Assembly: GCA_944389565.1 (NCBI GenBank)
Contig: CALXMV010000002.1
Coordinates: 49,309-113,308 of the forward strand
Origin: an uncultured Kiritimatiellota bacterium
GTDB taxonomy: Bacteria > Verrucomicrobiota > Kiritimatiellia > RFP12 > DVOR01
Direction: 5' to 3'
Length of the DNA: 64,000 bases
Shown here: positions 40,338 through 60,115 of the stretch, piece after piece
How the letters are laid out: each line of letters opens with the position of its first letter
Numbering within the stretch: the stretch's first letter is position 1
Made by a program: the position numbers and the translations under genes
The notes under the pieces: model-generated
Databases searched by the model: none
Seen by the model: only the letters and a program-made list of their open reading frames with translations
Told to the model about the DNA's origin: nothing

Positions 40338-40753
40338 CCCCCCCGCCGCCGACCCGCGCGTCCCTGCCCCCCGACCCTGCGCATGGTTCACCCCCGACCC
40401 TGCGCAGGGTCGGCGTTGGTTCGTGCGCGACACGCCCCTAAAAAAGGTCTTAAGCGGTCACGGGACCGCCAACACCCCTTTTTCGAGGGAAAACCGAAAA
40501 TCACGAAAAGTGATTGCAATCCGAATGGTTATTTGATATTTTCCGAAGCGTTGTCCCCATCGGGGCGTCTGTGAAAGGAACGATTCATGACTGACACCGT
40601 TTGCGATGCGTCGCGCTTCGCGGCGATACACGACAAAGACTTCGCCATGGCCCACACGCTGCCGGGCTACCGTCTCGCAGTCCCCCGCGCACACCTGTCT
40701 TGACTGCCTCCGTTTTGCCAACCTATGTGTGTTTTTTTGCGAAAGGATCGACT

Positions 40754-42310: not shown

Positions 42311-42320
42311 GGAGACCGCC

Positions 42321-43385
42321 ATGCACGAACCAACCTTTCTGCGCGAACTAACCTTTCTGGATGCCTTGCGGAAACGGCCCATCGTCATCCCCGCGATTCA
42401 GCGCGACTACGCGCAAGGGCGCGACACAACCCAAGCGGCGAACATCCGCACGGCGTTCGTGCGGCGGCTGGATGAGGCCGCCCGTGACCCGGGACGGGCG
42501 CTGAGCCTCGACTTGGTGTACATGGCCAAGGACGACAAGGCCGACTGGGTGCCTGTGGATGGGCAGCAGCGCCTCACCACGCTCTTTCTCTTCCATCTCT
42601 ATCATCTGAAAGACGTCTCCGACCTCAAACGCTTCAGTTATGCGGTGCGCCGCTCTTCACAGGCTTTCTGCGAGAAGGTCGTGGAGCGACAGCCGGACTG
42701 GAAGGGATTGGTGGAGGGAGGGCAGTATCCCACCCCCTCGGCGGCCATCCGCGACCAAGTCTGGTTTCTGAGCGCGTGGGAACGCGATCCCACCGTCAAG
42801 GGGATGCTCCAGACGCTGGACACCATCCACGGGGAAGCCAAGCAGAAAGCCCCGCTTCCGGAAGGATGGGAACGGAACATCACCTTTTGGGGCTACGAAC
42901 CCGAGGGGGACGCCGACGTGATCTACCGCGAGCTCAACGCCCGCGGCAAGCCGCTCACGCCCTTCGAGAACCTCAAAGCCTTCATCGATGGCCGCCCCGG
43001 CGTGACGAAGGACTGGAGAACGAATATCGACGGCGCATGGCTGGACGCGATCTGGGGGGCCGTCGAGAAAACGGAAGACCCGGAGTCCGCGTGCGACACG
43101 GCGCTGCTGACGCTGACGGTGGCGACACTTCTTGTCCGGGCCGTCGCGAAAGGCTCGGTCTCCGAGGAAACGGACGTCCAGGAAGCATTGGCCGTCCTGA
43201 TGGATCCCAACGCCTGGCTCTCGGACAATCTGCGAGAACGCCTGTGCGACGATGCCGCGCCTGAGGCGTTGGACAGGGATTTCGGGAAGGTGGCGCAGGA
43301 CGGCGGCAAGGAAGCCGCCGACCGGATGACCGCGCCCTGGGAGACAGGGGCAAGTTCCCGCTCATCGACAAACTTGCGCGGATAG
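42321..43385 (+). CDS. Second DUF262 (ParB-like NTPase/nuclease) protein; its reading frame probably continues by a -1 shift into 43265..44440
   Basis: AAGGAG RBS. DGQQRLTTLF motif. GC3 collapses after ~43345 while the -1 frame becomes codon-like. Confidence 0.6.
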   Translation: MHEPTFLRELTFLDALRKRPIVIPAIQRDYAQGRDTTQAANIRTAFVRRLDEAARDPGRALSLDLVYMAKDDKADWVPVDGQQRLTTLFLFHLYHLKDVSDLKRFSYAVRRSSQAFCEKVVERQPDWKGLVEGGQYPTPSAAIRDQVWFLSAWERDPTVKGMLQTLDTIHGEAKQKAPLPEGWERNITFWGYEPEGDADVIYRELNARGKPLTPFENLKAFIDGRPGVTKDWRTNIDGAWLDAIWGAVEKTEDPESACDTALLTLTVATLLVRAVAKGSVSEETDVQEALAVLMDPNAWLSDNLRERLCDDAAPEALDRDFGKVAQDGGKEAADRMTAPWETGASSRSSTNLRG

Positions 43386-43411: not shown

Positions 43412-44440
43412 TTGACCCTGCTGTATGCCTATTTGGAGGAACCGACCCATTGCCCGGAATGGTGGCGCGTCATCCACAACATCGTCGAGAACACGACGAT
43501 CGACAGCGCGAAAACGTTCGTCAGCGCGATCAAGTCCTTCACGGAACTGACCAAAGGCGCCAACCAGGGGCATGCCACCTTCCAAACGGCGCTGGGAGCG
43601 TCCGGCTTCGCGAAAGACCAGCGCATGGAAGAACGCAAAAAACTGGAACTCATCGCCGCAAACCCGTCTTGGCGTGGCCGTATCGTAGAGGCAGAGAGAT
43701 TGCCATGGCAAAAAGGCCGGATCGGGTTCCTGCTGGACCAGGGCGACAGCGATCCGGAAACCTTCGCAACGATCAAAGGATCCTTCATGTCGACATTCGC
43801 GGACGAAACGTCACGCCGCGCTTGGCTCCGCGACACCGTCCTCCCGCGGATCGAGGCCGCCTACTATACACCCGACACCGACAAAGCGGTTTACATCCCC
43901 TGTACGCTCGTCTATCCCGAGAATGACCACATCCTCAAAGATTTCCTCTACAGCCATTCATGGCAGATCGAATCCTTGGCACAGGCCGGCCAGGCAACCA
44001 CGGCGCGTTCCGCGTGGCGCGACCGTCTGGATTGTCTCTGCGAGGGGTGGGACGATCCGCGCGGGCAACCCTATGCCGATCGGTACGTCATCCAAACCAG
44101 ATCCGTGAACAGCCCCGGCGTTTATTTGTATACACGCCGCTATCTCAACGACAACACGGCTTACCGCATTGACAAGGCGGTCGATTGGTGGTATGCCCTC
44201 TCGGGCGTGACCCCCTGCAACAACAGGTGGTGCTTGATCAGAGGCGGAACCGCCGTGGAGGTCACGTGGCAGGGCGAAACGCTCCGTCTCATCCACGTTG
44301 ATCCGGGGTGGCAGGGCGTATGCAGCAAAGACACGGAAAAACAAACGTGGGGCGAGGACGTCGCATTCAACCCACAGACGCAGACGCTCGGGGACGTCGT
44401 GAAAACATTGCGCGAGGAGGCCTCGCATGGAAACGGATGA
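43412..44440 (+). CDS. Unknown protein. The frame is open from 43265, so this is possibly the C-terminal half of the preceding DUF262 gene, with an ENDHI(x)n putative degenerate nuclease motif.
   Basis: The ORF-track start is TTG. The same frame reads …GKFPLIDKLARIANDHLTYADL… upstream with high GC3. Confidence 0.5.
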   Translation: MTLLYAYLEEPTHCPEWWRVIHNIVENTTIDSAKTFVSAIKSFTELTKGANQGHATFQTALGASGFAKDQRMEERKKLELIAANPSWRGRIVEAERLPWQKGRIGFLLDQGDSDPETFATIKGSFMSTFADETSRRAWLRDTVLPRIEAAYYTPDTDKAVYIPCTLVYPENDHILKDFLYSHSWQIESLAQAGQATTARSAWRDRLDCLCEGWDDPRGQPYADRYVIQTRSVNSPGVYLYTRRYLNDNTAYRIDKAVDWWYALSGVTPCNNRWCLIRGGTAVEVTWQGETLRLIHVDPGWQGVCSKDTEKQTWGEDVAFNPQTQTLGDVVKTLREEASHGNG

Positions 44441-45263
44441 CGAGTTGGAGTGGTACCTTGAGCCACCGGAGTGGCAACTTTCCGGAGCCAAAGAGGCGCC
44501 CCCGCCCGCCGACTGGCCGGGCGACATCTTCCCGCGGTGGGAGGCCTTCCGACGCGCCCACCAGTCCGCCGACGCCGTGTTCGATCCTGCGATCGACGAG
44601 TCTTGGCGCTTGTCGGATATCTACGCCCTCCGTCGCAGCCGGGACGGCGAGGGTGATTGGCGCCTTACCTGTAAGGGCGTTCCTCCCGAAGCCTACATGG
44701 GCAATAAGGCGCTGCGCCTCGTGGTCGCGCCCGACCCGGCCTTAGAAATCCAGGGTTGCGGTTGCGGAAGTAACGCCATCGGCGCGCGGGCCTTCAAGGG
44801 CTGCGTGAACCTGAACTACGTCACCCACCTCGCGAACGACGTCTACGACATCGAGGAAGAAGCCTTCGCCGGGTGCTCGGCCCTGCGCGAGATCTGGAAC
44901 TTTCCCTTTTATCTGACGCGCATCGGGAAGCGTGCCTTCCAAGGGTGCGAGCGGCTCTGGAGGATTTGCCTGCCGGATTGCTTGGATGAAATCGGAGAAG
45001 AGGCCTTTTCCGGGTGCTCGGCCCTGTTGAAAGTCACTTTCGCGGAATGCATGCCTGATTGCCTTCGGTTTATCGGCCCACGCGCCTTCGCGGGGTGTGC
45101 GAGCCTACGGAAGGTCTATCTCCCGCAAACGCTCGAAACACTCGGGACAGACGCTTTCGCGGGCTGCCGCGCCCTCCGGCACGTCATCCTGCCCCGCACG
45201 TTGGAGGCGTCCATACCCGACGCCTTCCCGGACAGCACCGAAGCCGACTTCGTCTTTCACTGA
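44427..45263 (+). CDS. Leucine-rich-repeat protein (BspA-type LRR_5 repeats)
   Basis: GAGGAGG RBS. Repeats IG(x)AF(x)GC(x)L(x)V(x)LP occur about five times. It overlaps the upstream gene by 14 nt. Confidence 0.7.
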   Translation: METDDELEWYLEPPEWQLSGAKEAPPPADWPGDIFPRWEAFRRAHQSADAVFDPAIDESWRLSDIYALRRSRDGEGDWRLTCKGVPPEAYMGNKALRLVVAPDPALEIQGCGCGSNAIGARAFKGCVNLNYVTHLANDVYDIEEEAFAGCSALREIWNFPFYLTRIGKRAFQGCERLWRICLPDCLDEIGEEAFSGCSALLKVTFAECMPDCLRFIGPRAFAGCASLRKVYLPQTLETLGTDAFAGCRALRHVILPRTLEASIPDAFPDSTEADFVFH

Positions 45264-48926: not shown

Positions 48927-49056
48927 CGTCTCGTCCCTTTCGTTCTGCTCGCCCGCCTCGCGCGGGCATCGGGTATATGTTACCAAAATCCGCCGCGCCC
49001 GGCGACGGATCCGGCGGAAGAAAACCCGCCTGAGGCGATCCGGACGCGACCCGCGC

Positions 49057-50601
49057 TCACGCGAACAGCCACGCGCGCACCGCTTCTTTGACCTTCCGGT
49101 TCGCCCGTTGCGCAAGCCCCCGGATTTTCTCGCCGACCCACTTGCGCACGGCCTGCCCCGCCTTGACGACGGCCGTCCCCGCCGCCGAGCCGGCCATGTA
49201 CCCGACCACGCTGCCGACGAACCCGCCGATTATCGCCCCGGGCGGCCCAAACACCATCCCGACCGACGCGCCGATCGCGGCGCCCTTCGCGCCGACAATC
49301 AACCCCGCGAGCACCGCGACGGTCGTCTGCTCCATCTGATCGACGCCCTCCTCCACGGAAAGCTCGCCTCTGCCCATCTTGTAAAGAATCTTCGCGTTCT
49401 CGACGGCGACGAAGGCGACATTCGCCCAAGTCCCGGAGGCGACGCCCTTGAACGCGCCGCGAAAGGCGCCTTTCTCCGCGGCCACCTTCAACGCGCCGGC
49501 CACGGCGGCCTTCGCGCCGAAATCCGCGCCATCCTTCAGCGCCGCCTTGGCCACCGCCTTCCCCTCGATTTCCTCGCCGCGCCAAAGTTTCCCGACGACC
49601 TCGCCCCCGGCGCCGATGGCCGCGCCGATGAGCGCGGCTTTGCCGACCTGCTTGCCCAATCCGATGGACAGATCGCGGTAGCGGTATTCCTTCCAATCCA
49701 GATCGTTCCATCTGCCGCTTTGGGCGTCTTCCTGCAATTTTTTGGCGTTCGGCCGCGTGAGCGGGTTGCTCCGCGTGCCATCCGGCGCCTGGAGGGTATC
49801 CGTGGCCCCCCTGACCTCGCCCTTCTGGTCGGCGGGGACAAGTTTGCGTTGCCCGCGATAGTCACCGTTCTCGAAGAGTTGCCGGCTCGCCTGCCCGTCC
49901 TTGCCATACTTCACCTGATAGCGCCGGACGATCTTCCCGTTCGTGTCCTTGATCACGATGTCCACGGAGTTTTTGCCGTAGCCGCCCTTCCCCGCGCCGC
50001 CAAGCACCTCCGCGCGATACTGGCTGCCGTTCGCCTTGGCGTTCAGGTTGAAGGTCTCGACGTGATAGCGCTCCGCCATGAACCCATCCAGATGCGGGTT
50101 CCGGTTGACGGCGCCGGCTTGCGTCAGAAACGTCCCCGTCATCGCTTGGTTGGCGTCCGCCACGGCCTCGTCCAGCCGCGCCAGGTGCGCGGCGGCCGTC
50201 CCCTGCGCGGTTTGCGCCGAGGCGAACTCCTGCATCCTGTCGGCGAACCATGCCTCCTTGCTTCGGCCGCGGGCCACCGCCTCCCGCAGGGAGGCCTTGG
50301 CCTCCTCCTGCCTATGAAGCGTGTCGACGATTTCGGCGCTCATGGCGGCCACCTCCCCGGGGTCGCGCTCCGGGAGATGGCGCGCCATCTCATCGCGCAG
50401 CCAATCCCCGACGGGCGTCCCCGCCTGCTGGGCGCGCTCCCATCCCGCCGTGAACGCCGTCTGGAGGTCGATCACCGTCTGCGCGTCCTCCTCCGAGATT
50501 GGCGGGGCGACCGTCGCGTCCGCGATGAGATCCCACGTCTCAGGCGCTTGGGGCGTTTCGCCGTGGTCCGTCCTGTCCTGTTTCGGCTCCTGTTCGCTCA
50601 T
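49057..50601 (-). CDS. Unknown protein with a C-terminal glycine-zipper (GxxxG)n hydrophobic region; candidate effector of a three-gene operon
   Basis: GGAG RBS. The C-terminal ~130 aa contain LIGAAIGAGG, GAKGAAIGASVGMVFGPPGAIIGGFVGSVVGYMAGSAAG and similar stretches. Confidence 0.55.
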   Translation of the reverse strand: MSEQEPKQDRTDHGETPQAPETWDLIADATVAPPISEEDAQTVIDLQTAFTAGWERAQQAGTPVGDWLRDEMARHLPERDPGEVAAMSAEIVDTLHRQEEAKASLREAVARGRSKEAWFADRMQEFASAQTAQGTAAAHLARLDEAVADANQAMTGTFLTQAGAVNRNPHLDGFMAERYHVETFNLNAKANGSQYRAEVLGGAGKGGYGKNSVDIVIKDTNGKIVRRYQVKYGKDGQASRQLFENGDYRGQRKLVPADQKGEVRGATDTLQAPDGTRSNPLTRPNAKKLQEDAQSGRWNDLDWKEYRYRDLSIGLGKQVGKAALIGAAIGAGGEVVGKLWRGEEIEGKAVAKAALKDGADFGAKAAVAGALKVAAEKGAFRGAFKGVASGTWANVAFVAVENAKILYKMGRGELSVEEGVDQMEQTTVAVLAGLIVGAKGAAIGASVGMVFGPPGAIIGGFVGSVVGYMAGSAAGTAVVKAGQAVRKWVGEKIRGLAQRANRKVKEAVRAWLFA

Positions 50602-50619
50602 GGCAAATGCTCCGATCGT

Positions 50620-52155
50620 TTAGCTGTTTGTTTGGGAATCCGGTGTGCTGGCCCGTTTGATGTCGTTCTTCAGGATGGCCTCCCGCATCCGCGGGATCCG
50701 CTCCTTGAGCGTGTTGGAAATGGACTTGGTCTCTTTCGCCACGGCAAGCAGATCCTCCGTGGTGAGCGTCTCGCGATTCTCGGCGAAGGCGCGCTCGATG
50801 GCCTCCTTGACCACCGCCTCCAGATCCGCGCCGCTGAACCCTTCCGTCGCCTTGATCAGCGCGATGGTGTCGATTGCCCGATTCCACCGTTTCCGCTTCC
50901 TGAGATGGATCTCAAGGATCGCTCTGCGCTCCTCGCCATTCGGCAGATCGACGAAAAACAGTTCGTCGAAGCGGCCCTTGCGCAGAAACTCGGGCTTGAT
51001 GTTCGAGATGTCGTTGGCGGTCGCGACGATGAAGACGGTGTTCTCCTTCTCCTGGAGCCAGGTCAGGAATTGCCCGAAGAGGCGCGTCGTCACCTCGCTC
51101 CCCTCGCCGCCTGAGGCGGCCACGCCCGCGAAGGCCTTCTCGATCTCATCGACCCACAGCACGCAGGGCGCGATGGCCTCGGCGAGTCGCAGGGCCCGGC
51201 GCATGTTCTCCTCCGATTCGCCCACGTATTTCCCGAGCAGGCGCCCCACGTCGAGGCGGACCAACGGGATCTGGAAAAGCCCCGCCGTCGCCTTGGCCGT
51301 CAGGCTCTTGCCACACCCCGGCATACCGACGATCATGATTCCCTTGGGGACGTCCACGCCGGACTTGATCGCCTGATCGAGGTTCTTGAAAATCCGGGCC
51401 TTCCGTCCCAGCCAATTCTTCAGGATGTCCAGTCCGCCGATGTTTTCCACCTTGCACTCGGCATCGACCAGCTCCAGGCTCCCGCTCTTCTTCACGAACT
51501 GCCGCTTCTCCTGGAGGATCAGGCGCGTGTCCCGCCGATCCAGGTCGCCGCCGTTCTGGTAAGCGAGATTGAGGATCTGCCCGATCTGGAACGCGTTCAG
51601 CCCCTTGAAGGAAAGGGCGATCTCGTCGACGACCTCATCGCCCACCCGAATGCCCTGCCCGTCGGCGAAGGCCCGGATGATCGAGCGGATCTCCGGGATC
51701 GACGGCAACGGGAAATCGAAGAGCGTGATGAGGTGCTCCAGCTCACGCGGGATCGACAGGATCGCCGAGACGACGAAAATCGTCGCGTGATAGGTGTCGT
51801 CGTTCAGGTTCCATTCCGCGATGCGCCGCAACAACGCGATGACCTTGGGCTCCGCCAAGTCGCCATGCACATCCCGCAGGATCAGGAAGGTCGGCCTCCG
51901 GAACCCCTCCTCCAAGGTACGGAGCAGGAACGCCTCCAAATCGCACGCCTCGCCGGGCGGATCCAAGGGATGGCCATCCCGGAAATCCACCATCCCCAAC
52001 GCATGGTCAAACGCCACGCACCTGATACCCTCCCCGGCCACTTGGGCGATCAGACCGTCGACCGCATGGAAATCGAAGTGGTTGATGTAAATGATGGGAC
52101 GCAGGGCGTCCACATACGAGGCCAATTGGTCGACCGCGCCCTGACGCATGGTCAC
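50620..52155 (-). CDS. Classic-clade AAA+ ATPase with a ~250-aa unknown N-terminal domain
   Basis: Walker A GMPGCGKS, Walker B VLWVDEIE, and a SRH with Arg. The start (GTG 52155 or ATG 52149) overlaps the upstream stop. Confidence 0.8.
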   Translation of the reverse strand: MTMRQGAVDQLASYVDALRPIIYINHFDFHAVDGLIAQVAGEGIRCVAFDHALGMVDFRDGHPLDPPGEACDLEAFLLRTLEEGFRRPTFLILRDVHGDLAEPKVIALLRRIAEWNLNDDTYHATIFVVSAILSIPRELEHLITLFDFPLPSIPEIRSIIRAFADGQGIRVGDEVVDEIALSFKGLNAFQIGQILNLAYQNGGDLDRRDTRLILQEKRQFVKKSGSLELVDAECKVENIGGLDILKNWLGRKARIFKNLDQAIKSGVDVPKGIMIVGMPGCGKSLTAKATAGLFQIPLVRLDVGRLLGKYVGESEENMRRALRLAEAIAPCVLWVDEIEKAFAGVAASGGEGSEVTTRLFGQFLTWLQEKENTVFIVATANDISNIKPEFLRKGRFDELFFVDLPNGEERRAILEIHLRKRKRWNRAIDTIALIKATEGFSGADLEAVVKEAIERAFAENRETLTTEDLLAVAKETKSISNTLKERIPRMREAILKNDIKRASTPDSQTNS

Positions 52156-53144
52156 ACCTCCATGTAAAGCACGCTGCGCTGCGAGGAGCCGCTCTTGTAG
52201 TCAAGGCCGTCGAGGATCATGAACGCGCCGTTCGTCTGGCTGGTCGAATGCTCGACCCCATGCGCCCCCGCAGACCGGATGTAATCAGGCTCCGCAGCGG
52301 CACGCCCGTCAACCAAAACTCCCATCCGAAGGACCATGTATTGCCTGCCCTTGACCTCCAAGTCTTTCCAATAACCCGCGGTTTCCCCGGCGAAGACACG
52401 AAGATTTTTCTCCCCGACCCCTTTCCTGACCGTCTCGACACGCTGACGGACAAAGTTCCAGATGGCCTCCATCGCCTCCTTCTTGAACTTCATCTCGTCG
52501 TACTCGGGGTCCGTCGTGGGAAGCGAACGATCCACGTCACGCATGGCTTTGCCGTCCTCAAGCTCAATGGTGACAGGCAGATAGTATCTCCGCGTGGTCG
52601 GATTCATGAGCAGGCACATGACGGACAGCCAATACCCGCCACGACACAAGGACAAGAACAACGACCGATGATGCAGATCCAAGACCCACCCATAATGTGT
52701 GGCCATCTCGGCAATCGCCGCCTTGATTTGCGCCGCATTCGCACCGTAATCCGGAGAAACGAGCAACCCATTCGCCAACTTGAAGTAATTTTCCTGATAA
52801 GCCTTGACAAGCGCGGCCTCGCGCACCTTCCCTTTCTGGCAAGCCAGATAACGCCTCACGCGCTCCGCACGATACTGGAGCGCATAAAGACTCCTCTCGT
52901 CCGCCTCGGCGCCAAGCGCGGCGATGACCTTCCGCATGGTTTGGACCTCGTCGCCAGGCACATCGGCCAAGACGCGGATTTTCTCGGCCTCGTCGGCATA
53001 ACCGCGGGTTTCCAGCCAGCGTAACAACAAGTCCCCGCGCAACGCCTCGAAGACATCCTCGACGACGAAGTTCTCCCGCAACGCCTCAAGCGTCCGCACG
53101 GGCTTCCCGTCCACGATCAGATTGAACTTGATGGTCTTTGCCAT
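52152..53144 (-). CDS. Hypothetical protein (330 aa), first gene of the AAA operon
   Basis: A perfect AAGGAG RBS sits 6 nt before the ATG at 53144. No recognised motif. Confidence 0.55.
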   Translation of the reverse strand: MAKTIKFNLIVDGKPVRTLEALRENFVVEDVFEALRGDLLLRWLETRGYADEAEKIRVLADVPGDEVQTMRKVIAALGAEADERSLYALQYRAERVRRYLACQKGKVREAALVKAYQENYFKLANGLLVSPDYGANAAQIKAAIAEMATHYGWVLDLHHRSLFLSLCRGGYWLSVMCLLMNPTTRRYYLPVTIELEDGKAMRDVDRSLPTTDPEYDEMKFKKEAMEAIWNFVRQRVETVRKGVGEKNLRVFAGETAGYWKDLEVKGRQYMVLRMGVLVDGRAAAEPDYIRSAGAHGVEHSTSQTNGAFMILDGLDYKSGSSQRSVLYMEV

Positions 53145-53279
53145 GAAGCACTCCTTGAAATGATGGCGCAAGTATACCACCCCCCCATAAAATCAAGTTC
53201 ATTTAATCGTATAAGCGCCACCGCCCCCGAAAGGCGGAAAGGATTGGGGGGAGGGGATTGGCAGATTGGTACCCCCGCA

Positions 53280-53440
53280 CATCGGGCGGGGGCGGGGGCC
53301 AAACCCTAAAGGGTTTGAACCCAAAGTCGGGAGGGTTCGGGGGCGAAACCCTAAGGGGTCTGACCCGAAACCCTAAGGGGTCTGGGGCGGAAGTCGGGAG
53401 GGTTGGGGCGGGGAGACGTCTTGCGTATACCCCCCATTGA
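53280..53440. repeat. Intergenic repeat cluster: AAACCCTAA(A)GGGTYTG hairpin units interleaved with AGTCGGGAGGGTT(C)GGGGCG
   Basis: Seen in sequence. The second motif matches the direct repeats flanking repeat copy C at 25395 and 25622. Confidence 0.5.
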
Positions 53441-53533
53441 CACAAAAGGGCCTTTTTGTTATCATGCGCGAACTTTTTTCCCCAATGGAGGCCATGTCGT
53501 AGTGTGCGTGGCCGGTTCATGGAGATCGCAGTC

Positions 53534-56500
53534 ATGAAATGTCAATTCTCGCGTTTGCTCGTGAGTCTTTTTTCTATGTTGCCGTGCCTTGTCTTGGGCG
53601 CGGCCGCCGTCGGCGCTCCCTTTGACCGCACCTTCACCTTCTCCACCCTCGGCCGCGCGGCGGAGGTGGCGCTCGCCCCGATCGACGAGGGCGGCACGCT
53701 CACCGTCACGCTCGATGGCGCCCTGATTGACAAGACCATCCGCCTCGACCGCGAGGGCGAGGTGGGCGCGGATGAGCCCGTCGCCTTCATCCCCTCCGTG
53801 GTCAAGATCACCGCGCTCACCCTCGTCTTCCCCTCCACCGCCCACCCCGAGGCGCTCTTCGTCAACAACCGCCATGATCAGGAAATGAAGTGGGAGCCTG
53901 AGGGCGAGACTGAGCGGATTGTCCTGCGCGACGCCGCCGGCGGCACCACCGAGGCCTATGCCGTCACCTATGCCCACAAAATCGGCACGGCTGTCGGCGC
54001 CGGGGGCGAGGTGCCCTACCGGATCACCTTCTCGCGCTTCCTCACCGACGGCAACCAGACCAACAACGGCAACATCTACCTGGCCGATTCGGCCGGCCGC
54101 GTCCCGCACGTCCGCGCCGTCGGCACGGCCACGGTGACCCGCCACGTCATCACCCTCTCCGATGGCGAGGCGCACAGCCTCGACGCCGAGCTCGGCACGG
54201 CCTTCACGGACAGCGTGGACAACATCGTCGTGGCCGAGTTCACCGGCGCGGGCGGCACGCTGCGGATGGACCGCGCGCTCGCGAAGGCGCCCTTCGTGGC
54301 GGCCACCGCGGTGACGGGCGAGGCCGCGCAGATTCGCTTCACCGCCCCCGCCGCGGGCCAGACCGCCCCCGTCTTCACCGGCGCCTGCACCTTCCGCGAC
54401 CACGGGCGCGACGTCCGGGGGCGCATCGTCGTCAGCGGCGAGACCGGCTCCCTCTCCGAGGGCGGCGGCAAATGGGATCCCGCCGACTTCCTCCTCCTCT
54501 GCGACGCCACCCTTGCCTCTCCTCTACCCCCCCCCGTACAGGACGGTGAGAGCCTCTGGTTCCACGACCACGTCATCGCCATCCCTGCCGGGCGCACCCT
54601 CACCCTCGCCTACCCCACCGACCAGGCCGCGCAGGTCACCGACGAGGAGCAGCTCCCCAACGTCTCCTTCGCCGACGCCACCGCCGCCCTCGAACTCGCC
54701 TCCGACCTCTCCGGCAAGGGCCTCCCCCCCAAATACCAATTCGCCCTCAGCACCCAGTCCGGCACCCTCATCCTCAACCGCGACTTCGAGACGGACGACG
54801 CCTTCGGCTTTTACGCCCTCTCCGCCTCGGCGCTGGAGACCACGCTCATCCTCCGCGGCGACCACACCTTCGCCTTCGGCGGGATGCTCGCGTTCAACAA
54901 CTACGCCTCGGCCACGGTCGTCGTGGAGGACGGCCAAACCACGATCGACGGCGCGCTCCACCTCTCCAACACCGCCAGCGCCGTGCGCGTCGAGGGCGGC
55001 TCCCTGACGGTGAACACCGTCGCCGGATTCCCCACCGGCTCCACCACGCGCCTCGACGTGGCCCAAGGGGCGGCCCTCACGCTCACGGACGGCCTCGCCA
55101 CGGGCTCGGACGCCTCCGTCGGCGCCTTCAACCTCGCCGTCGCCGGCACGCTCACCCTCGGCGGCGACCTGCACATGACCCCCGCCCGCCGCCGCACCCT
55201 CACCCTCGCCGGCGGCACCATCTCCGCCACCCGGGCCGCCGCCGTCAATTGCGGCGTCAATCTCGGCGGCACCGAGACGGAGAACTTCCTGGTCGTCTCC
55301 GGCGGCGGCACCCTCACCGGCCCGGTCACCGTGGACGGCGTCTCCGGCGCCGGCGCCCTCGCCATCGAAACGCAGGCCGCCGTCACCCAATTGCGCGACT
55401 ACGACGGCACCGTCTCCGGCGCCGGCACGATCGGGGCCATCGAGGGCTCCCTCGGCACCGTCGTCCTCGGCAAGCCCTGGCTCAGCGCCACGGGCAAGAC
55501 CCTCGCCGACGTCGCCGCCATCACCCCGAAATACCTCGGCGCCATCGGCTTCTCCGCCGGCGCCTCGCCCTCCGCCCAGAAGGCCATCGACTTCTCGGTG
55601 GTCGATGCCCTCTCCACCCTCCAGGCCGCCTTCGTCCCCGCGGACAACCAGGCCATCACCATGCGCCTGGACCAATACGCCGACGCGGACATCCGCTGGC
55701 CCGCCGCCGTCAGCGGCGTGACCCTCACCCTCATCGAGTCCGGCGCCTACGGCGGCTCCGTCACCCTCCCCCACTGGCCCGAGCGGGGCGTCGATTTCCG
55801 CTTCGCCTCCTACGACCCCGACGGCGCGCGCGACGAATCCACCGGCCAGCCCCTCCACTCCCTCCGCGGCGAGGGCGAATTCTCCCACACCCATTCCGAG
55901 GACGGCGTCAGCGACATCCTCACCTGGGAGGACCCCGTCTTCACCGGCGCCGGCGCGTGGTTCGACGTCGAGTTCAACGGCGATTCCTACAACACCGGTT
56001 GGTTCACCCTGCTCGACAACAACGGCAACCCAAGCGCACAGGCCAACGGCATGCTCCGTGGCGATGCCGCCGACGCTGGGCAGCAGATCGTCATGACGGA
56101 CACCTCGTTCTTCGCCCCCGTCTCGCACCCGGCGAACGCGAAAGGCGGGATACCTCTGCGTTATCGCCCGTACGTCTCGCCCTACTCGCTCGATTATCCT
56201 GAGGAATGGAGCGTCGCCGTACGCCTCTCCGCGCCGAACAAGAAGAAAATGTGCATCCTCGCCCTAGGCGGAAACGGCGCATACACCGGCAGCGGTGCCT
56301 CCGACAAAACCTACTCACTCGTCTTCGCCACCGGCGACAACCCGAACGAAATCGTCCTCTGGAAGTTCGATGGCATGGGCAACGATACGGCCATCCCCGA
56401 GGAGCCACTCTTCAGGGTCACACTCGCCGACTCGCAAACCGCCCTCCACGTCTTCTCCGTGGTCTGCGACGGCGAGGCCCTCACCCTCTACATGGACGGC

Positions 56501-59500
56501 GCCTACCTCAGCCAGATCGACCTGCCCCCCAGCACGAAACTGGCCCCCGGCCTGCAGGTGGGGCAGCAACTCGGCGGCAACTACATCCCCGCCGACGCCA
56601 AGGCGTTGGCGCAGGACGTCACCGCCAACGACGGCGGCCTCATCGACTACATCCGCTTCTACAAGGGCGCCCTCACCGACGCGGCCATGCAGGAGATCGC
56701 CGACCGCACCCCCTACGTCCTCGACAACGTCCGCTACGTCCGCCACGTCCCCGCCACGGAACACACCGGCGCCGAGACGTGGATCCAGAAGGGCGCCTGG
56801 CAGAAGGAGACGTGGAACGGCTCGGCCTGGGCCCCCAAGGGCGACCCCACCGACCAGCCCGCCGAGGGCACGGCGTGCCGCCTCCTCGTCGCACCCGGCG
56901 AGTACACCATCCAGGTGAACGTCGAGCGTCAGGAAAACGCCTACTTCTACTCCCCCAACCGCAACTACGCCACCCTCGTCCTCGCCCCGCAGGAGGGGCA
57001 GACCAAGGCCGGCACCCTCCGCCTCACCCCCCTCGGCGTCACCGCCCGCGAGGCCGACGACACCCTCGACACCGCCGAGGGCGGCGAGGCCGTCACCACC
57101 TGGGAGAATCAGGTCGTCGACAGCGACTGGTACACGGCGACCGCCGAATCCACCGCCGCCAACCGTACCGGCTTCCGCTACGGCCGCCTCCGCTTCACCG
57201 GCGGCGCCGACGACCCCATCGCCGACGACCCCGCCATCCCCCACTTCTACGGCGCAGGATATATCCTCGCGGAAAGCACGCCAACCCCCACCGAAAACCA
57301 AGTCTCAATCGACTGGGGTGAAACCAAGGTCGGAAGTGGCACTACGTTCAACAAGCCTATTAAACGTACTGGGACGAAGACCTATACCATCACCTATTCC
57401 GCCACCTCACCCCTCAACGCCATCTATGACGCCGGCGCGTGTTACTTCTCGAAATACGCGCAACTCCTCCTGCAAGGCACACAAACAGGCCAATGCACCG
57501 TCACGGAAACCTGGCAGCAGGAAGGAACCAGATCTTTCGGTTACGATTGGTGGAACGATCCAACACTCCAGACCACCGAGACCTCCGGCGGCGCACTCAC
57601 CCAGCGCAACACGTTGGAGATGGTGGCGGGGCTGTCGCTGACGCGCGGGGAGGTGGACGAGGTGGCGACATGGCAGCTGACGGGCCCGGTGGTGGTGGAG
57701 GGCGGCGAGGCGTCGGCCGAGGACCATGTGCTCGGGCACGCGCCCTTGGCCGAGGAGGACCAGCAGTCGCAGGATGTGTGGGTGCCCTTCTTCTCGGGCA
57801 CGGCGTCGAGCTGGAAGTTCTACGACGTGACGCGCCGGGAGGCCACGGACAACGCCAACGGCGCCGCCGAGGGGCTCTTCGCCGAGGGCGTGCAGACCCC
57901 CGGCCGCCTCTACCTCGACCTCACCGCCGAAAACGGCAAGGCCCGCTATAAGGCGAGCCACGACTTCTCGAAGCAGGCGTGGTATCGCTACGGTTACGAA
58001 GGCGACGCGACGAGCGGGATCGCCGGCATGACGCCCATCCAGGCCTCGGATGCGGACTTCAGGCGCGCCATCGCCTTCCAGATCCGCCTGGCGGCGGCAG
58101 AGGGCGACGTGACGCTCACCCTCGACGCGAAGCCCGACAACGACGTCAAGGTCCAGACCTTCCACGTGGAGGAGGACGGGAAGGCGGAGGAGGCGCCGAC
58201 GTTGCGGCTCGTCACCGGCAAGGACGTCGCGCCGATGGTCATCCATCGCTCCGTCATCGCCGCCGCGCGCCTCGACGTCTCGAACGGGCAGACCGGCACG
58301 GCCACCGACGCGATCCACCTCGGCAACGCGCTGAACCTCCGTCCCGGCGAGGGGCTCCACACCCCCGTCCACCGCGGCACCGCGGAGACCGCGCGCGGCG
58401 CCTACATCGTCGGCCCCACGGAGATCGACTGGGACTTCGGCGCGAGCAGCTCGGTGCCGCGGCTGGAGGTCGCCACGGGGTGCGAGCTCACCTTCACCAC
58501 GGGGCAGAACTTCCGCCGCCACGGCACCACCCTCGTCGCGCAGGGCGGCGAGCCGGCGACGAACGACCTGACGCGGGGCGGCGCCTGGATCCACCACGCC
58601 AGCGAGGCGGCCTTCCTGGGGCAGGACGTCGAGCTGGGCGAGGGCGCGACCTTCGCCTTCCATGCGGAGGCCGCCTCCGAAGGCGCGGACGTCGCCGAGG
58701 AGGGCGTGGTGCTGGCCGGCGCGCTGAAGCTGAAGGGCAACGCCACGCTCCGCGGCGGACAGGGCCAGACCGCCGCGCAGACGGAGCGCGTGCCGCACTT
58801 CAACGCCGCCGGCGGCATCGTCGCCGAACAGCCCGGCCTCACCCTGACCGTCGACACCCAGGGCCAGACCCTCTGGCATTGCCACACCGTCGACCTGCGG
58901 GGCGAGCGCTTCGGCCTGCGCAAGACGGGCGCGGGCGCGGTGAACTTCTATGCCCACACCCCGCCCTCCGTCACCGGCCCCGTCTCGGTGGAACAGGGCA
59001 CGCTCTTGGTCACCAAGGGTGCCTCCACCCCCATCGGCGCCAAGGGCCTCCGTGTGGAGAAGGGCGCGACGCTGGCCGACAATGACCGCGTGGAGGGCGA
59101 CACCCACCTGCTCGCCGACGTCAAGGGCGGCGAGACCCTCTCCGGCGGCGGCACCGTCCAGGGCGGCCTCCTCCGGCTCAACAAGGACGCGACCTACATC
59201 GCGAAGGTCGACGAGGCGCTCACCGCCACCGACGGCTTCGACGTCGACTCCTCCACCCTGCCCGACGTCGTCATCGACCTGCCGGAGGGTTACGTGGGCG
59301 GTTACCCGCAGGGCGTCTTCCTCCGCGCCGGGCGCGCGGAGCGCAACGTCCGCCGCCGCCTCGCCTCGATGATGGGCGAGACGCGCTGGGACACCATCGC
59401 CCGCATCGACAAGCGGACCGGCAAGACCGCCTATTACGCCCAGGAGCCCAGGATCCCGGAGCCCGGCGAGGGCGACTTCGACGGCGACGTGGCGGACAAC

Positions 59501-60115
59501 TCCTACGCCGGGCACCCCGTCGTCGTCGGTGGCCTCACCGTCCTCTACCAGCAGGGCGGCGTGGCCTACGTGGGCACCTCCCGCGGCCGCACCAAAGCCG
59601 GCACCCACCGGCTGAACGCCGACGAGATCGGCCACGCGATCACCTGCTTCTCGGGCGTCTGGGCGTTCGCCGCCGACACCGGCGCCTCCGAGACGGAGGA
59701 GTACGTGGACGGCTCGAACCTCCTGCTGGCCTATGAGTTCGGCATCACGGCCATGCACCGCGTGACGATCGGGGAGAGCGACTACCTCGTGGCCGAAGTC
59801 ACGATCCTCAACGCCCTGCGCGAGACCTTCCCCGAGGCCTTCCCCGCGGACGCGGCCGTGGACGAGGCCCTCTTCCGCGAGACCGCCCGCGTCACCCTCG
59901 TCGATGGGGCGACCGACGAGCCCGTCGCGGGTGCGGCGGAGGTCACGGGCCTCGACGGCGCGACCCTCCTCCGCCCGGACGACGGCACACAGGCCCTCGC
60001 CGCCTCCGGCGCCACCCCCACGCGTTACGTCCGGATCCCGTGGTCGGACGATCTCCTCGGCGCCTCCCTGCGGGCACAGGTCTCGCTGAAGGTGACCGTG
60101 ACCGAGGCGCCCTGA
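53534..60115 (+). CDS. Giant secreted protein (2,194 aa) with a LamG/concanavalin-like jelly-roll segment and autotransporter-associated beta-strand repeats
   Basis: GGAG RBS and signal peptide MKCQFSRLLVSLFSMLPCLVLGAAAVGA. LamG-like region ~nt 56200-56700. PATR-like …TGAGAVNFYAHTPPSVTGPVSVEQGTLLV… No PEP-CTERM. Confidence 0.7.
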   Translation: MKCQFSRLLVSLFSMLPCLVLGAAAVGAPFDRTFTFSTLGRAAEVALAPIDEGGTLTVTLDGALIDKTIRLDREGEVGADEPVAFIPSVVKITALTLVFPSTAHPEALFVNNRHDQEMKWEPEGETERIVLRDAAGGTTEAYAVTYAHKIGTAVGAGGEVPYRITFSRFLTDGNQTNNGNIYLADSAGRVPHVRAVGTATVTRHVITLSDGEAHSLDAELGTAFTDSVDNIVVAEFTGAGGTLRMDRALAKAPFVAATAVTGEAAQIRFTAPAAGQTAPVFTGACTFRDHGRDVRGRIVVSGETGSLSEGGGKWDPADFLLLCDATLASPLPPPVQDGESLWFHDHVIAIPAGRTLTLAYPTDQAAQVTDEEQLPNVSFADATAALELASDLSGKGLPPKYQFALSTQSGTLILNRDFETDDAFGFYALSASALETTLILRGDHTFAFGGMLAFNNYASATVVVEDGQTTIDGALHLSNTASAVRVEGGSLTVNTVAGFPTGSTTRLDVAQGAALTLTDGLATGSDASVGAFNLAVAGTLTLGGDLHMTPARRRTLTLAGGTISATRAAAVNCGVNLGGTETENFLVVSGGGTLTGPVTVDGVSGAGALAIETQAAVTQLRDYDGTVSGAGTIGAIEGSLGTVVLGKPWLSATGKTLADVAAITPKYLGAIGFSAGASPSAQKAIDFSVVDALSTLQAAFVPADNQAITMRLDQYADADIRWPAAVSGVTLTLIESGAYGGSVTLPHWPERGVDFRFASYDPDGARDESTGQPLHSLRGEGEFSHTHSEDGVSDILTWEDPVFTGAGAWFDVEFNGDSYNTGWFTLLDNNGNPSAQANGMLRGDAADAGQQIVMTDTSFFAPVSHPANAKGGIPLRYRPYVSPYSLDYPEEWSVAVRLSAPNKKKMCILALGGNGAYTGSGASDKTYSLVFATGDNPNEIVLWKFDGMGNDTAIPEEPLFRVTLADSQTALHVFSVVCDGEALTLYMDGAYLSQIDLPPSTKLAPGLQVGQQLGGNYIPADAKALAQDVTANDGGLIDYIRFYKGALTDAAMQEIADRTPYVLDNVRYVRHVPATEHTGAETWIQKGAWQKETWNGSAWAPKGDPTDQPAEGTACRLLVAPGEYTIQVNVERQENAYFYSPNRNYATLVLAPQEGQTKAGTLRLTPLGVTAREADDTLDTAEGGEAVTTWENQVVDSDWYTATAESTAANRTGFRYGRLRFTGGADDPIADDPAIPHFYGAGYILAESTPTPTENQVSIDWGETKVGSGTTFNKPIKRTGTKTYTITYSATSPLNAIYDAGACYFSKYAQLLLQGTQTGQCTVTETWQQEGTRSFGYDWWNDPTLQTTETSGGALTQRNTLEMVAGLSLTRGEVDEVATWQLTGPVVVEGGEASAEDHVLGHAPLAEEDQQSQDVWVPFFSGTASSWKFYDVTRREATDNANGAAEGLFAEGVQTPGRLYLDLTAENGKARYKASHDFSKQAWYRYGYEGDATSGIAGMTPIQASDADFRRAIAFQIRLAAAEGDVTLTLDAKPDNDVKVQTFHVEEDGKAEEAPTLRLVTGKDVAPMVIHRSVIAAARLDVSNGQTGTATDAIHLGNALNLRPGEGLHTPVHRGTAETARGAYIVGPTEIDWDFGASSSVPRLEVATGCELTFTTGQNFRRHGTTLVAQGGEPATNDLTRGGAWIHHASEAAFLGQDVELGEGATFAFHAEAASEGADVAEEGVVLAGALKLKGNATLRGGQGQTAAQTERVPHFNAAGGIVAEQPGLTLTVDTQGQTLWHCHTVDLRGERFGLRKTGAGAVNFYAHTPPSVTGPVSVEQGTLLVTKGASTPIGAKGLRVEKGATLADNDRVEGDTHLLADVKGGETLSGGGTVQGGLLRLNKDATYIAKVDEALTATDGFDVDSSTLPDVVIDLPEGYVGGYPQGVFLRAGRAERNVRRRLASMMGETRWDTIARIDKRTGKTAYYAQEPRIPEPGEGDFDGDVADNSYAGHPVVVGGLTVLYQQGGVAYVGTSRGRTKAGTHRLNADEIGHAITCFSGVWAFAADTGASETEEYVDGSNLLLAYEFGITAMHRVTIGESDYLVAEVTILNALRETFPEAFPADAAVDEALFRETARVTLVDGATDEPVAGAAEVTGLDGATLLRPDDGTQALAASGATPTRYVRIPWSDDLLGASLRAQVSLKVTVTEAP

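Follow-up and report, generated by a model that had tools for sequence, protein, structure and literature searches.

Introduction

Two described systems are built around AAA+ ATPases related to the one studied here. In SgiAT of SGI1, the antitoxin is an AAA+ ATPase of the SpoVK/Ycf46/Vps4 group (PMC10954446). In cyanobacteria, ycf46 belongs to a three-gene operon of unknown function (slr0373-slr0374-slr0376 in Synechocystis and Synpcc7942_0416-0418 in S. elongatus) whose expression rises under many stresses and runs counter to that of ribosomal genes (PMC7496141; bioRxiv 10.1101/2025.07.21.665879). Here we analyzed a triplet of genes, denoted A, B and C, in a 64,000-nucleotide stretch of DNA from an uncultured Kiritimatiellota bacterium, referred to below as the window. 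A preliminary description had presented the triplet as a candidate defence or toxin system, similar in logic to abortive-infection systems but not recognised as a named one. Neither A nor C matched any model in PADLOC 2.0, Pfam or NCBIfam, in agreement with that view, and we found no paper describing the A-B-C triplet. We see about an even chance that A, B and C form an as yet unnamed conflict cassette (defence or toxin-like) that is self-contained and was acquired horizontally.

Organization of the locus

The three genes lie in series on the minus strand at 49057-53144, at the coordinates first reported, and are tightly packed in the order A, B, C. Since each has more than 1000 homologues, they are real genes and not chance reading frames. 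Gene A (52152..53144) encodes a soluble protein of 330 aa, and the AAGGAG Shine-Dalgarno sequence previously read in front of it is present at 53151..53156, 6 nt ahead of its ATG. Gene B (50620..52149) encodes a 509-aa ATPase. Starting instead from a GTG at 52155 would extend it to 511 aa, and the preliminary description had B starting at this GTG, overlapping the stop codon of A (GTGA). While the overlap exists, the GTG does not appear to be the true start; judging from the sequence, the ATG at 52149, 2 nt past the stop of A, is more likely, with GGAGG 7-8 nt upstream, and its equivalent is the start used for B by gene callers on sister contigs. Gene C (49057..50601), which encodes a putative membrane effector of 514 aa, starts 18 nt past the stop of B with GGAG 9 nt upstream of its start. 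A pattern scan placed two weak terminator-like hairpins 3' of the C stop (48990..49038), their count being no higher than in shuffled sequence, and a terminator role is only suggestive.

The GC contents of A, B and C are 58.4%, 62.2% and 67.7%, respectively, and that of the triplet is 63.4%, compared with 70-74% in the flanking genes and 68.6% in the whole window; the corresponding GC3 values are 75%, 86% and 86% against ~92% for comparison. The lower GC noted earlier is therefore real, but the value of ~58% set against ~70% in the flanks applies to A only and overstated the contrast. The cassette sits between a sulfatase gene, downstream of C, and a giant surface-type protein gene; this sulfatase and repeats in the intergenic region upstream of A had both been reported, and both were found. 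The nearest defence-like genes in the window are a DUF262 pair ~6 kb away, past housekeeping genes, and there is no WYL gene at the window copy, features that speak against a conflict role.

Gene B encodes a Ycf46-like AAA+ ATPase

The sequence of B is that of a complete AAA+ ATPase, which falls in the classic clade and is Ycf46-like. The AAA+ module with its lid spans aa 233-470 (50740..51453, minus strand; PF00004, PF17862) and contains both motifs previously pointed out, the Walker A GMPGCGKS (51304-51327) and the Walker B VLWVDEIE (51139-51162), with PF00004 matched at E=8e-29 together with AAA_lid_3. Between them is the pore loop KYVG (51220-51231), and sensor-1 N379 and the arginines R390/R393 are also within the module. 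Motif conservation was judged across 76 sequences. All the motifs expected of an active unfoldase are present in B, and such activity is predicted for it. The closest solved structure to the module is the p97/Cdc48 D2 ring (E=4e-61), whereas all NCBIfam scores of B are far below the family cut-offs. The N-terminal region, described earlier as an unknown domain of ~250 aa, indeed comprises ~230-250 aa without any family match; we delimited it as a conserved domain of aa 1-232 (51454..52149, minus strand; no Pfam match) with residues conserved in at least 90%, e.g. P18-I-I-Y-I22, F25 and D26. When this domain was compared with the AAA domain by hhalign, the probability was 4%, and no duplication was detectable.

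B of the window genome (~70% GC) shares 65-68% identity with homologues from gut clostridia, and a 66%-identical homologue is named 'AAA domain-containing protein ycf46' in UniRef. Because B is in a Ycf46-like family with cyanobacterial members in a stress-induced operon, we kept in view a second reading, in which the three genes serve stress response, growth arrest or membrane-protein quality control and form a mobile equivalent of the cyanobacterial ycf46 operon. In that case the task of B would be to remodel or extract the membrane protein C, assisted by A as a cofactor, when the cell meets envelope, oxidative or nutrient stress and not phage. That ycf46 is the middle gene of its stress-induced operon (PMC7496141; bioRxiv 10.1101/2025.07.21.665879) and is co-induced with a slr0373-like gene in Microcystis cell death (PMC12172450) agrees with this reading, and the core, stress-induced character of the cyanobacterial Ycf46 relatives also counts against a conflict role. 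However, Moorena is the sole named cyanobacterium among the best 150 clusters of the A family.

Architecture of the C protein

C starts with an N-terminal helical domain (aa ~35-160; 50122..50499, minus strand), defined by alignments and by model helices of pLDDT 60-85, which carries an invariant G-R-S-K-E-x-W-F-A motif and is kept in long and short family members. It is followed by a middle alpha/beta domain (aa ~165-300; 49702..50109, minus strand), strongly conserved but missing from short C variants, with invariant E177, H180, D214, Q229-x-K231 and G246-x-Y248-x-x-Q251. This middle domain had been overlooked in the preliminary description. As a hypothesis only, it might be a PD-(D/E)xK-like nuclease.

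The remainder of C is a Gly/Ala-rich region (aa 308-500; 49102..49680, minus strand). A glycine-zipper tail of ~130 aa had been claimed for C; the Gly/Ala-rich end is there, but it is ~190 aa long with 39% Gly+Ala. Only aa 425-475 (49177-49329), a glycine-zipper stretch reading ...GLIVGAKGAAIGASVGMVFGPPGAIIGGFVGSVVGYMAGS..., are hydrophobic enough for a transmembrane hairpin, and the other helices are amphipathic. While the Pfam glycine-zipper match of C itself is below threshold (E=0.008), its homologues matched C19orf12 (26/33), Gly-zipper_Omp (24/33) and DUF6861 (18/33) at E<0.01, with a best E of 3.5e-06. The C-terminal helices were modelled at low confidence (pLDDT<50). Considering this, and that the helices are amphipathic except for one 50-residue hairpin, membrane permeabilisation by C is not established. 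Among C variants, only the N-terminal helical domain and the glycine-zipper membrane region are common to all; 13 of the C copies encoded upstream of A-B are short and do not have the middle domain, so that what C always keeps as its core is the membrane part.

One C homologue is labelled 'LXG domain-containing protein' in UniRef, and the N-terminus of C is helical, as would be expected if C were a secreted LXG/type VII polymorphic toxin with A and B as chaperone and export ATPase. This identity is largely refuted and we regard it as very improbable: at E<0.01 none of 33 C family members matched Pfam LXG, type VII secretion genes are absent from every inspected locus, and the cassette also occurs in Gram-negative phyla and an archaeon. 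Moreover, there is neither an immunity gene nor a variable toxin tip, the C-terminus being the most conserved part of C.

Structure model of the A protein

In the structure model of A, a beta-hairpin and helices at the N-terminus are followed by a middle part of helical repeats and, at the C-terminus, a beta domain. Although the model is confident, no convincing fold match was found in the PDB. Both extreme termini are invariant, with MAKTIKFN at the start and LYMEV-COOH at the end.

Conservation and spread of the cassette

To describe synteny we used 78 species-representative loci. B is directly 3' of A in 72 of them, the remaining six being contig ends or fragmented genes, and C adjoins A-B in 68 of these 72, as A-B-C in 47 and as C-A-B in 21. 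The homologues therefore do co-occur, contrary to the possibility raised earlier that they never would. At some loci the cassette is present as diverged tandem duplicates, and identical copies are on many different contigs. Together with the identity of B to its clostridial homologues and the lower GC and GC3, these copies and the patchy distribution speak for horizontal transfer. The cassette covers ten or more bacterial phyla and a single archaeon (Methanofollis); the bacterial bearers are Bacillota, Bacteroidota, Pseudomonadota, Campylobacterota, Cyanobacteria, Synergistota, Fibrobacterota, Cloacimonadota, Ignavibacteriales, Desulfobacterales and Moduliflexus.

B matched phrog_8638 over its full length (E=3.6e-112), and the glycine-zipper region of C gave weak PHROG matches to tail and internal virion proteins, which could indicate that the triplet is what is left of a lysis or morphogenesis module of a phage, e.g. 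one pairing a phage AAA ATPase with a holin-like membrane protein. Such an origin is extremely improbable, as A is in 0 of 50,697 INPHARED phage records and the cassette is on 1 of 2.9 million IMG/VR contigs; B homologues in phage are at most 32% identical with partial coverage and come without A or C, and no phage structural genes flank the cassette within the window. The near-absence from phage collections is neutral with respect to defence and gives no link to phages.

Genomic contexts

The contexts of the family are often defence islands or mobile-element cargo. Among the neighbours are large serine recombinases, a relaxase, AIPR, DrmE (DISARM), PLD-helicase and HEPN_AbiU2, as well as restriction-modification genes, Bunzi, PD-T4-6, PDC-S39, PDC-S01, PDC-S05 and TIR-TM; of these, the recombinases, AbiU2, AIPR, DISARM and restriction-modification genes are seen repeatedly. 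A WYL-type regulator is in the flanks of 31/74 loci, and among the 57 loci with enough upstream sequence to assess its position, 16 have an HTH-WYL-WCX regulator immediately upstream in the same orientation, archaeal and Gram-negative ones included. Flanks are purely housekeeping in Moorena, where the order is C-A-B, and in three further loci (L098-L100).

Lone cassettes amid housekeeping genes, as in Moorena, the window and elsewhere, are in line with the stress reading. In contrast, sporadic spread across phyla, near-identical mobile copies, WYL regulators and defence neighbours are atypical of a housekeeping stress system, and we consider this reading unlikely while giving it real weight. 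It also overlaps with the conflict reading, since an effector of abortive infection also works by arresting growth.

The cassette is further found as cargo of elements that have serine recombinases and a relaxase at their borders and on C. butyricum megaplasmids, where a stop codon interrupts C in the C. butyricum copy, a frequent fate of toxic genes. With SgiAT on SGI1 as a precedent for a toxin with an AAA+ antitoxin, these observations would suit an addiction or toxin-antitoxin module that stabilises integrative elements and megaplasmids, with C as toxin, A/B as antidote and no anti-phage role. We judge this improbable, because many copies are at chromosomal housekeeping sites with no visible mobile element and because, at 4 kb and with three proteins plus an optional WYL gene, the module is much larger than typical addiction modules; nor is it cleanly separable from the conflict reading, as many toxin-antitoxin systems also act in defence.

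Proposed model for a putative conflict cassette

Taken all together, the initial proposal of a defence or toxin system is borne out insofar as the cassette is unnamed, self-contained and present in defence contexts, and is weakened by the housekeeping sites and the kinship with Ycf46. For the conflict reading we propose the following model. The genes, their motifs, their synteny, the spread among taxa and the genomic contexts behind it are observed, whereas that C is toxic, which way B controls it, that A is a sensor and that there is any anti-phage activity are inferred. C would be the effector, anchored by or inserted through its glycine-zipper hairpin, and once oligomerised its Gly/Ala-rich helices may perturb or permeabilise the cytoplasmic membrane, leading to growth arrest or abortive infection. 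In the window subfamily, C would bring an extra conserved cytoplasmic domain, maybe nuclease-like. B could form a hexameric, substrate-threading unfoldase of the Ycf46 type that gates C as an ATP-driven switch. The analogy of the AAA+ antitoxin of SgiAT/IetAS suggests that B would most likely remodel C, or a complex of A and C, without pause and so keep it inactive, until a trigger stalls or redirects B. A, always just 5' of B, is probably translationally coupled to it and is a likely adaptor or sensor between trigger and B, with its invariant N- and C-terminal tails as candidate docking or threading sites; the sensor role is purely inferred. In many genomes, an upstream WYL regulator may add transcriptional control.

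Comparison with known systems

In having an HTH-WYL-WCX regulator directly upstream at some of its loci, the family is like the WYL-regulated BrxR-BREX and CapW-CBASS systems, but the cassette genes are unrelated to theirs and the window copy has no WYL gene. With p97/Cdc48/VAT, PAN and FtsH, B shares the Walker A/B motifs, aromatic pore loop, sensor-1, arginine fingers and lid, whereas it is a single AAA ring without a protease domain, double-psi barrel N-domain or HbYX tail. Ycf46 is closer in layout, being ~500 aa with an unclassified N-domain before a C-terminal AAA module, and its operon also has the ATPase as the middle of three genes, a likeness drawn from the ATPase and its gene position alone; Ycf46 is core and vertically inherited in cyanobacteria and red-lineage plastids, while the cassette is sporadic and mobile.

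IetAS (Gao_Iet) and SgiAT, like the cassette with its presumed toxin C, encode a classic-type AAA+ ATPase beside a toxic protein and occur in mobile or defence contexts. IetA models are the best PADLOC matches of B (E=8e-25), over the ATPase core only, and B scores 81.5 bits against the NCBIfam IteA cut-off of 510. Unlike these systems, the cassette has no subtilisin-like protease partner, its ATPase is paired with two unrelated proteins (A and the glycine-zipper C), and the N-terminal domain of B is a different one. Finally, C shares GxxxG(A/S) repeats, a hydrophobic hairpin and a GP(P)G turn with glycine-zipper proteins (C19orf12-like, Gly-zipper_Omp/YMGG and DUF6861). Those families consist of small proteins, whereas the hairpin of C forms the end of a 350-550 aa protein that adds a specific N-terminal domain, amphipathic helices and, in the window subfamily, an inserted alpha/beta domain.

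Gene organization and surroundings

Genes A, B and C lie consecutively on the minus strand, at the place given in the preliminary description. Gene A (52152-53144) encodes 330 aa from its ATG, or 342 aa from a GTG farther upstream; gene B (50620-52155) encodes 511 aa when read from a GTG and 509 aa if the ATG at 52149 is used; and gene C (49057-50601) encodes 514 aa. The ribosome-binding site and the overlap noted earlier are both present in the sequence, with AAGGAG 6 nt ahead of the ATG of A and the TGA stop codon of A sharing bases with the GTG (GTGA). The ATG of B is located 2 nt past the stop of A with GGAGG 7-8 nt upstream, and it is this ATG, not the GTG, that gene callers took as the start of B on the sister contigs. 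B and C are separated by an 18-nt spacer containing GGAG. A-B-C is probably a translationally coupled operon. Two weak hairpins lie 3' of C, a count not above chance. The GC content of the triplet is lower than that of the flanking genes (70-74%, GC3 about 92%), as had been described, but the overall value is 63.4% instead of ~58% and the contrast is smaller than claimed: GC and GC3 are 58.4% and 75% in A, 62.2% and 86% in B, and 67.7% and 86% in C.

The cassette is flanked by a sulfatase and a thymidine phosphorylase on one side and by a 2219-aa protein on the other. The gene of the latter (53456-60115, plus strand) encodes a signal-peptide-like N-terminus; its counterpart on the sister contig L011 was called at 2203 aa, with no Pfam match on record. 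The 275-bp region between A and this divergent giant gene contains three copies of a AAACCCTAAGGGGTCTG-like motif. At 53288-53408, the motif of about 54 nt containing AAACCCTAAGGGGTCTG is arranged as three overlapping copies together with several inverted repeats; these repeats may act as operators or form a REP-like element. Pointing towards the giant gene is a sigma-70-like promoter close to consensus (TTGACA, 17 nt, TATCAT; 53437-53465).

Protein B has the motifs of a classic AAA+ ATPase

The assignment of B as a classic AAA+ ATPase held up, since it matches PF00004 (E=8e-29) and carries both of the motifs cited for it. Walker A (GMPGCGKS, aa 275-282) and Walker B (VLWVDEIE, aa 330-337), the aromatic pore loop 1 KYVG (K307-Y-V-G310), sensor-1 (N379) and the arginine fingers R390/R393 (RKGRFD) of the second region of homology are each conserved at a level of at least 90% across 76 family members, and the lid is matched by AAA_lid_3 (E=1.3e-11). 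With Walker A and B, pore loop, arginine fingers and lid all present, B reads as a complete classic-clade ATPase, and the conservation of its motifs within the family argues for a substrate-threading unfoldase. Among solved structures, p97/Cdc48 comes nearest with its D2 ring (E=4e-61), a match restricted to residues 235-463. The N-terminal 232 residues are conserved and fall outside any classified domain; that they form a degenerate AAA copy was rejected, as hhalign against the AAA domain gave a probability of 4%. In NCBIfam, the matches of B to PAN, Cdc48, FtsH and IteA were all far below their cut-offs, while phrog_8638 matched B over its full length (E=3.6e-112). The search returned more than 8000 near-full-length relatives. 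Among these, a Butyricicoccus homologue (P0036) with 66% identity is named 'AAA domain-containing protein ycf46' by UniRef. B also fits the Ycf46 architecture of about 500 aa, in which a family-specific N-domain is followed by one AAA module, and is a candidate member of that family.

Proteins A and C

Scans of A against Pfam, NCBIfam, PADLOC and PHROGs gave no significant match. Its AlphaFold model was confident (pLDDT 89.9) and predicts an N-terminal hairpin with helices, then a long stretch of helical repeats and, at the C-terminus, a beta domain. A profile of A collected 2210, 751 and 336 clusters at 50% identity with E<=1e-3, 1e-10 and 1e-30, respectively. In an alignment of 38 diverse homologues, the first eight residues (MAKTIKFN, 53121-53144) and the last five (LYMEV-COOH, 52152-52166) were invariant or nearly so. 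Such conservation is unusual for protein ends and suggests that a binding partner, possibly the AAA+ ring, recognises the termini.

The model of C was only moderate (pLDDT 54.7, with residues 35-300 at 60-85). Its N-terminal domain is helical with an invariant GRSKExWFA motif, its middle is an alpha/beta unit with invariant E177, H180, D214, Q229-x-K231 and G246-x-Y-x-x-Q251, and its C-terminus (aa 308-500) is Gly/Ala-rich (39% Gly+Ala). The proposed glycine-zipper C-terminus was borne out in part: tandem GxxxG motifs are found inside a hydrophobic helical hairpin, but this hairpin is confined to aa 425-475, the only stretch hydrophobic enough to cross the membrane (Kyte-Doolittle >1.2). The Pfam glycine-zipper match of C itself is below threshold (E=0.008); among 33 homologues, C19orf12 was matched by 26, Gly-zipper_Omp by 24 and DUF6861 by 18. 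We also considered C as an LXG polymorphic toxin of type VII secretion, which ranks among the weaker explanations and was set aside, as none of the 33 C-family members matches Pfam LXG and the inspected loci hold no type VII secretion genes.

For the middle domain, Foldseek against the PDB gave no match at E<0.2, and nothing beyond noise came from an HMM run against PDB sequences or from Pfam scanned at E<=10. Membership of the PD-(D/E)xK nuclease superfamily, defined by an alpha-beta-beta-beta-alpha-beta core with an acidic residue in strand 2 and (D/E/Q)xK in strand 3, is therefore only hypothetical for this domain.

In one homologous locus, on the C. butyricum megaplasmid pCFSA3989 (L093, 14605-16152), the C homologue is cut by a stop codon directly after the invariant GRSKES and is annotated as two hypothetical proteins. 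The same A-gene match occurs in two further records, H1 and H3; the reading of the C gene covered L093. The stop codon may have disabled a toxic gene, or it may be read through in a programmed way.

The cassette is widespread and syntenic

Each of the three proteins has more than 1000 relatives in a database clustered at 90%. A search through genomes representative of their species gave 78 loci, distributed over Bacillota, Bacteroidota, several classes of Pseudomonadota, Campylobacterota, Cyanobacteria (Moorena), Synergistota, Fibrobacter, Cloacimonadota, Ignavibacteriales, Desulfobacterales, Moduliflexus and the archaeon Methanofollis. The earlier proposal depended on the homologues occurring together, and they do. 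In HMM searches of six-frame ORFs over these loci, B directly follows A in 72 of 78, the other six being contig ends or fragmented genes, and C adjoins the pair in 68 of the 72 (downstream in 47, upstream in 21). The three genes are strictly co-inherited, and the cassette has spread horizontally.

Thirteen of the upstream C copies are short (about 350-390 aa); they retain the helical N-terminal domain along with the glycine-zipper part and lack the middle domain altogether. Considering these copies, the constant core consists of A, B and a membrane-type C, and the middle domain present in the window is an addition of one subfamily, inside which its motifs are invariant. In four loci (L018, L023, L081 and L084), two A-B-C or C-A-B cassettes that differ from each other stand in tandem; B scores about 850-1050 in the first copy and about 520-540 in the second, which suggests duplication and diversification.

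Genomic neighbourhoods

Elements that encode a relaxase and large serine recombinases carry the cassette in gut clostridia, next to AIPR, DrmE, PLD-helicase, a dynamin/DUF87/nuclease trio and HEPN_AbiU2. On C. butyricum megaplasmids, a WYL gene borders it on one side and a restriction-modification system on the other. When the 125 distinct immediate neighbours were sorted by family, WYL/WCX regulators outnumbered every other group by far (15-16 members); Bunzi, PD-T4-6, PDC-S39, PDC-S01, PDC-S05 and TIR-TM were matched once each, and methyltransferases were also present. A dedicated search found a WYL protein within the flanks of 31 of 74 loci. Upstream sequence was long enough in 57 loci, and 16 of these, archaeal and Gram-negative ones included, have the WYL gene immediately upstream in the same orientation. 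WYL control and neighbourhoods of defence genes or mobile elements are frequent. The window has no WYL regulator immediately upstream of A, where the 275-bp intergenic region leads to the divergent giant gene. Lone cassettes among housekeeping genes were also seen, namely in the window, at the loci L098-L100 and in Moorena, where the cta genes lie on one side and pheT/rsgA/dnaJ on the other. The cassette is nearly missing from phage collections; the cassette as a remnant of a phage lysis module is among the weaker explanations and was rejected.

Several nearby loci deserve mention in their own right. Directly upstream of the cassette on Butyricicoccus-type contigs (L001-L005, 1-5985), a conserved gene set encoding a Dynamin_N GTPase, a HerA-like DUF87 ATPase, an Endonuclease_NS_2 protein and a small ORF may constitute another candidate conflict system. 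On L098 (17265-19038), about 4 kb downstream of the cassette, a weakly C-like 304-aa ORF (E=4e-13) adjoins a WYL gene and may be a related second module. At a distance of about 6 kb from the cassette, the window carries a pair of adjacent DUF262/GmrSD_N-type genes whose products have partial PADLOC matches to HEC-06, Orf5 and SspE N-domains; genes for a 342-aa protein of no assigned family and a leucine-rich-repeat protein come next. This plus-strand stretch (40601-43385, 43412-44440 and 44427-45263) has a lower GC content (58-63%). It may be a second defence-like locus. A 372-aa protein encoded at 39219-40337 (plus strand) gave partial matches to prokaryotic viperin (pVip) models (E=5.8e-11) and may simply be a radical-SAM enzyme.

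Proposed mechanism and a possible relation to ycf46

The sequence analysis shows an intact unfoldase, B, beside a partner, C, that has a glycine-zipper hairpin. We give the cassette an even chance of being a conflict system, either defensive or toxin-like. In such a system, C would be the toxic output, acting through membrane perturbation, and A would serve as an adaptor or sensor whose invariant tails are candidate docking or threading sites. B would be an ATP-driven gate. In SgiAT, an AAA+ ATPase of the SpoVK/Ycf46/Vps4 group serves as antitoxin to the toxin it is paired with (PMC10954446); on this precedent, B would most likely hold back C, or a complex of A and C, until triggered.

The ycf46 gene, conserved in cyanobacteria and plastids, has been known for years and lacks a mechanism. 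A link of the cassette to Ycf46 is plausible. In Synechocystis and S. elongatus, ycf46 is the middle gene of a three-gene operon (PMC7496141; bioRxiv 10.1101/2025.07.21.665879), flanked by slr0373 and slr0376 or by Synpcc7942_0416 and 0418. This operon is strongly induced by many stresses and linked to growth arrest, with no function assigned (PMC7496141; bioRxiv 10.1101/2025.07.21.665879; PMC12172450). If the flanking genes were homologues of A and C, the cassette would be a mobile version of a module for stress response or growth arrest; however, the only named cyanobacterial A-like proteins among the best 150 A-family clusters are from Moorena, and we regard this main alternative as rather unlikely. 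It overlaps with the conflict reading, since an effector of abortive infection also works by arresting growth. An addiction module is a weaker explanation than the stress module and seems improbable.

A more far-reaching form of the conflict reading is about as likely as the stress module: A-B-C, with WYL optional, would be a widespread unnamed immune or suicide system in which a Ycf46-type unfoldase gates a glycine-zipper pore-former, and the cyanobacterial ycf46 stress operon and plastid ycf46 would be its domesticated descendants. The cassette may then also explain Ycf46, the ATPase of a strongly stress-induced three-gene operon, and a common machine would give ycf46 a concrete, testable function. 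As a defence or suicide system, the cassette would represent a new design, in which a membrane effector is under the control of an AAA+ ATPase of the classic protein-unfolding kind, and would add two protein families, A and C, without any annotation. The family is large and, being common in gut clostridia and mobile on integrative elements, could influence phage therapy and the flow of mobile elements in microbiomes.

Comparison with known systems

Many comparable candidate systems exist. In PADLOC-DB 2.0.0, no system had all of its components matched: A had no match, C matched only LeoB (E=0.016, on the glycine zipper), and B matched only the ATPase cores of IetA (E=8e-25, residues 255-482 only) and TRIP13. 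The literature searches yielded no description of the A-B-C triplet; the RADS preprint reports an 'AAA ATPase' candidate, not specified further, whose defence was weak to moderate. MoxR-vWA/FtsH ternary conflict systems, whose core pair is a MoxR ATPase and a vWA protein (Kaur et al. 2020; PMC7159879), were ruled out, as neither MoxR nor vWA was matched in A, B or C. IetAS (Gao_Iet) was excluded on both of its components. NCBIfam IteA_antiphage gave B 81.5 bits against a cut-off of 510 with only the ATPase core aligned, and for the partner IetS, a subtilisin-like serine protease, neither A nor C has a peptidase match and the operon contains no protease gene. In its proposed working, the cassette is nevertheless closest to IetAS and SgiAT, which place an AAA+ ATPase beside a toxic partner; it differs from IetAS in having no protease and an IetA score far below the cut-off. 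We class the cassette as a putative member of the NTPase-gated effector cassettes, forming a large, unannotated and clearly modular family.
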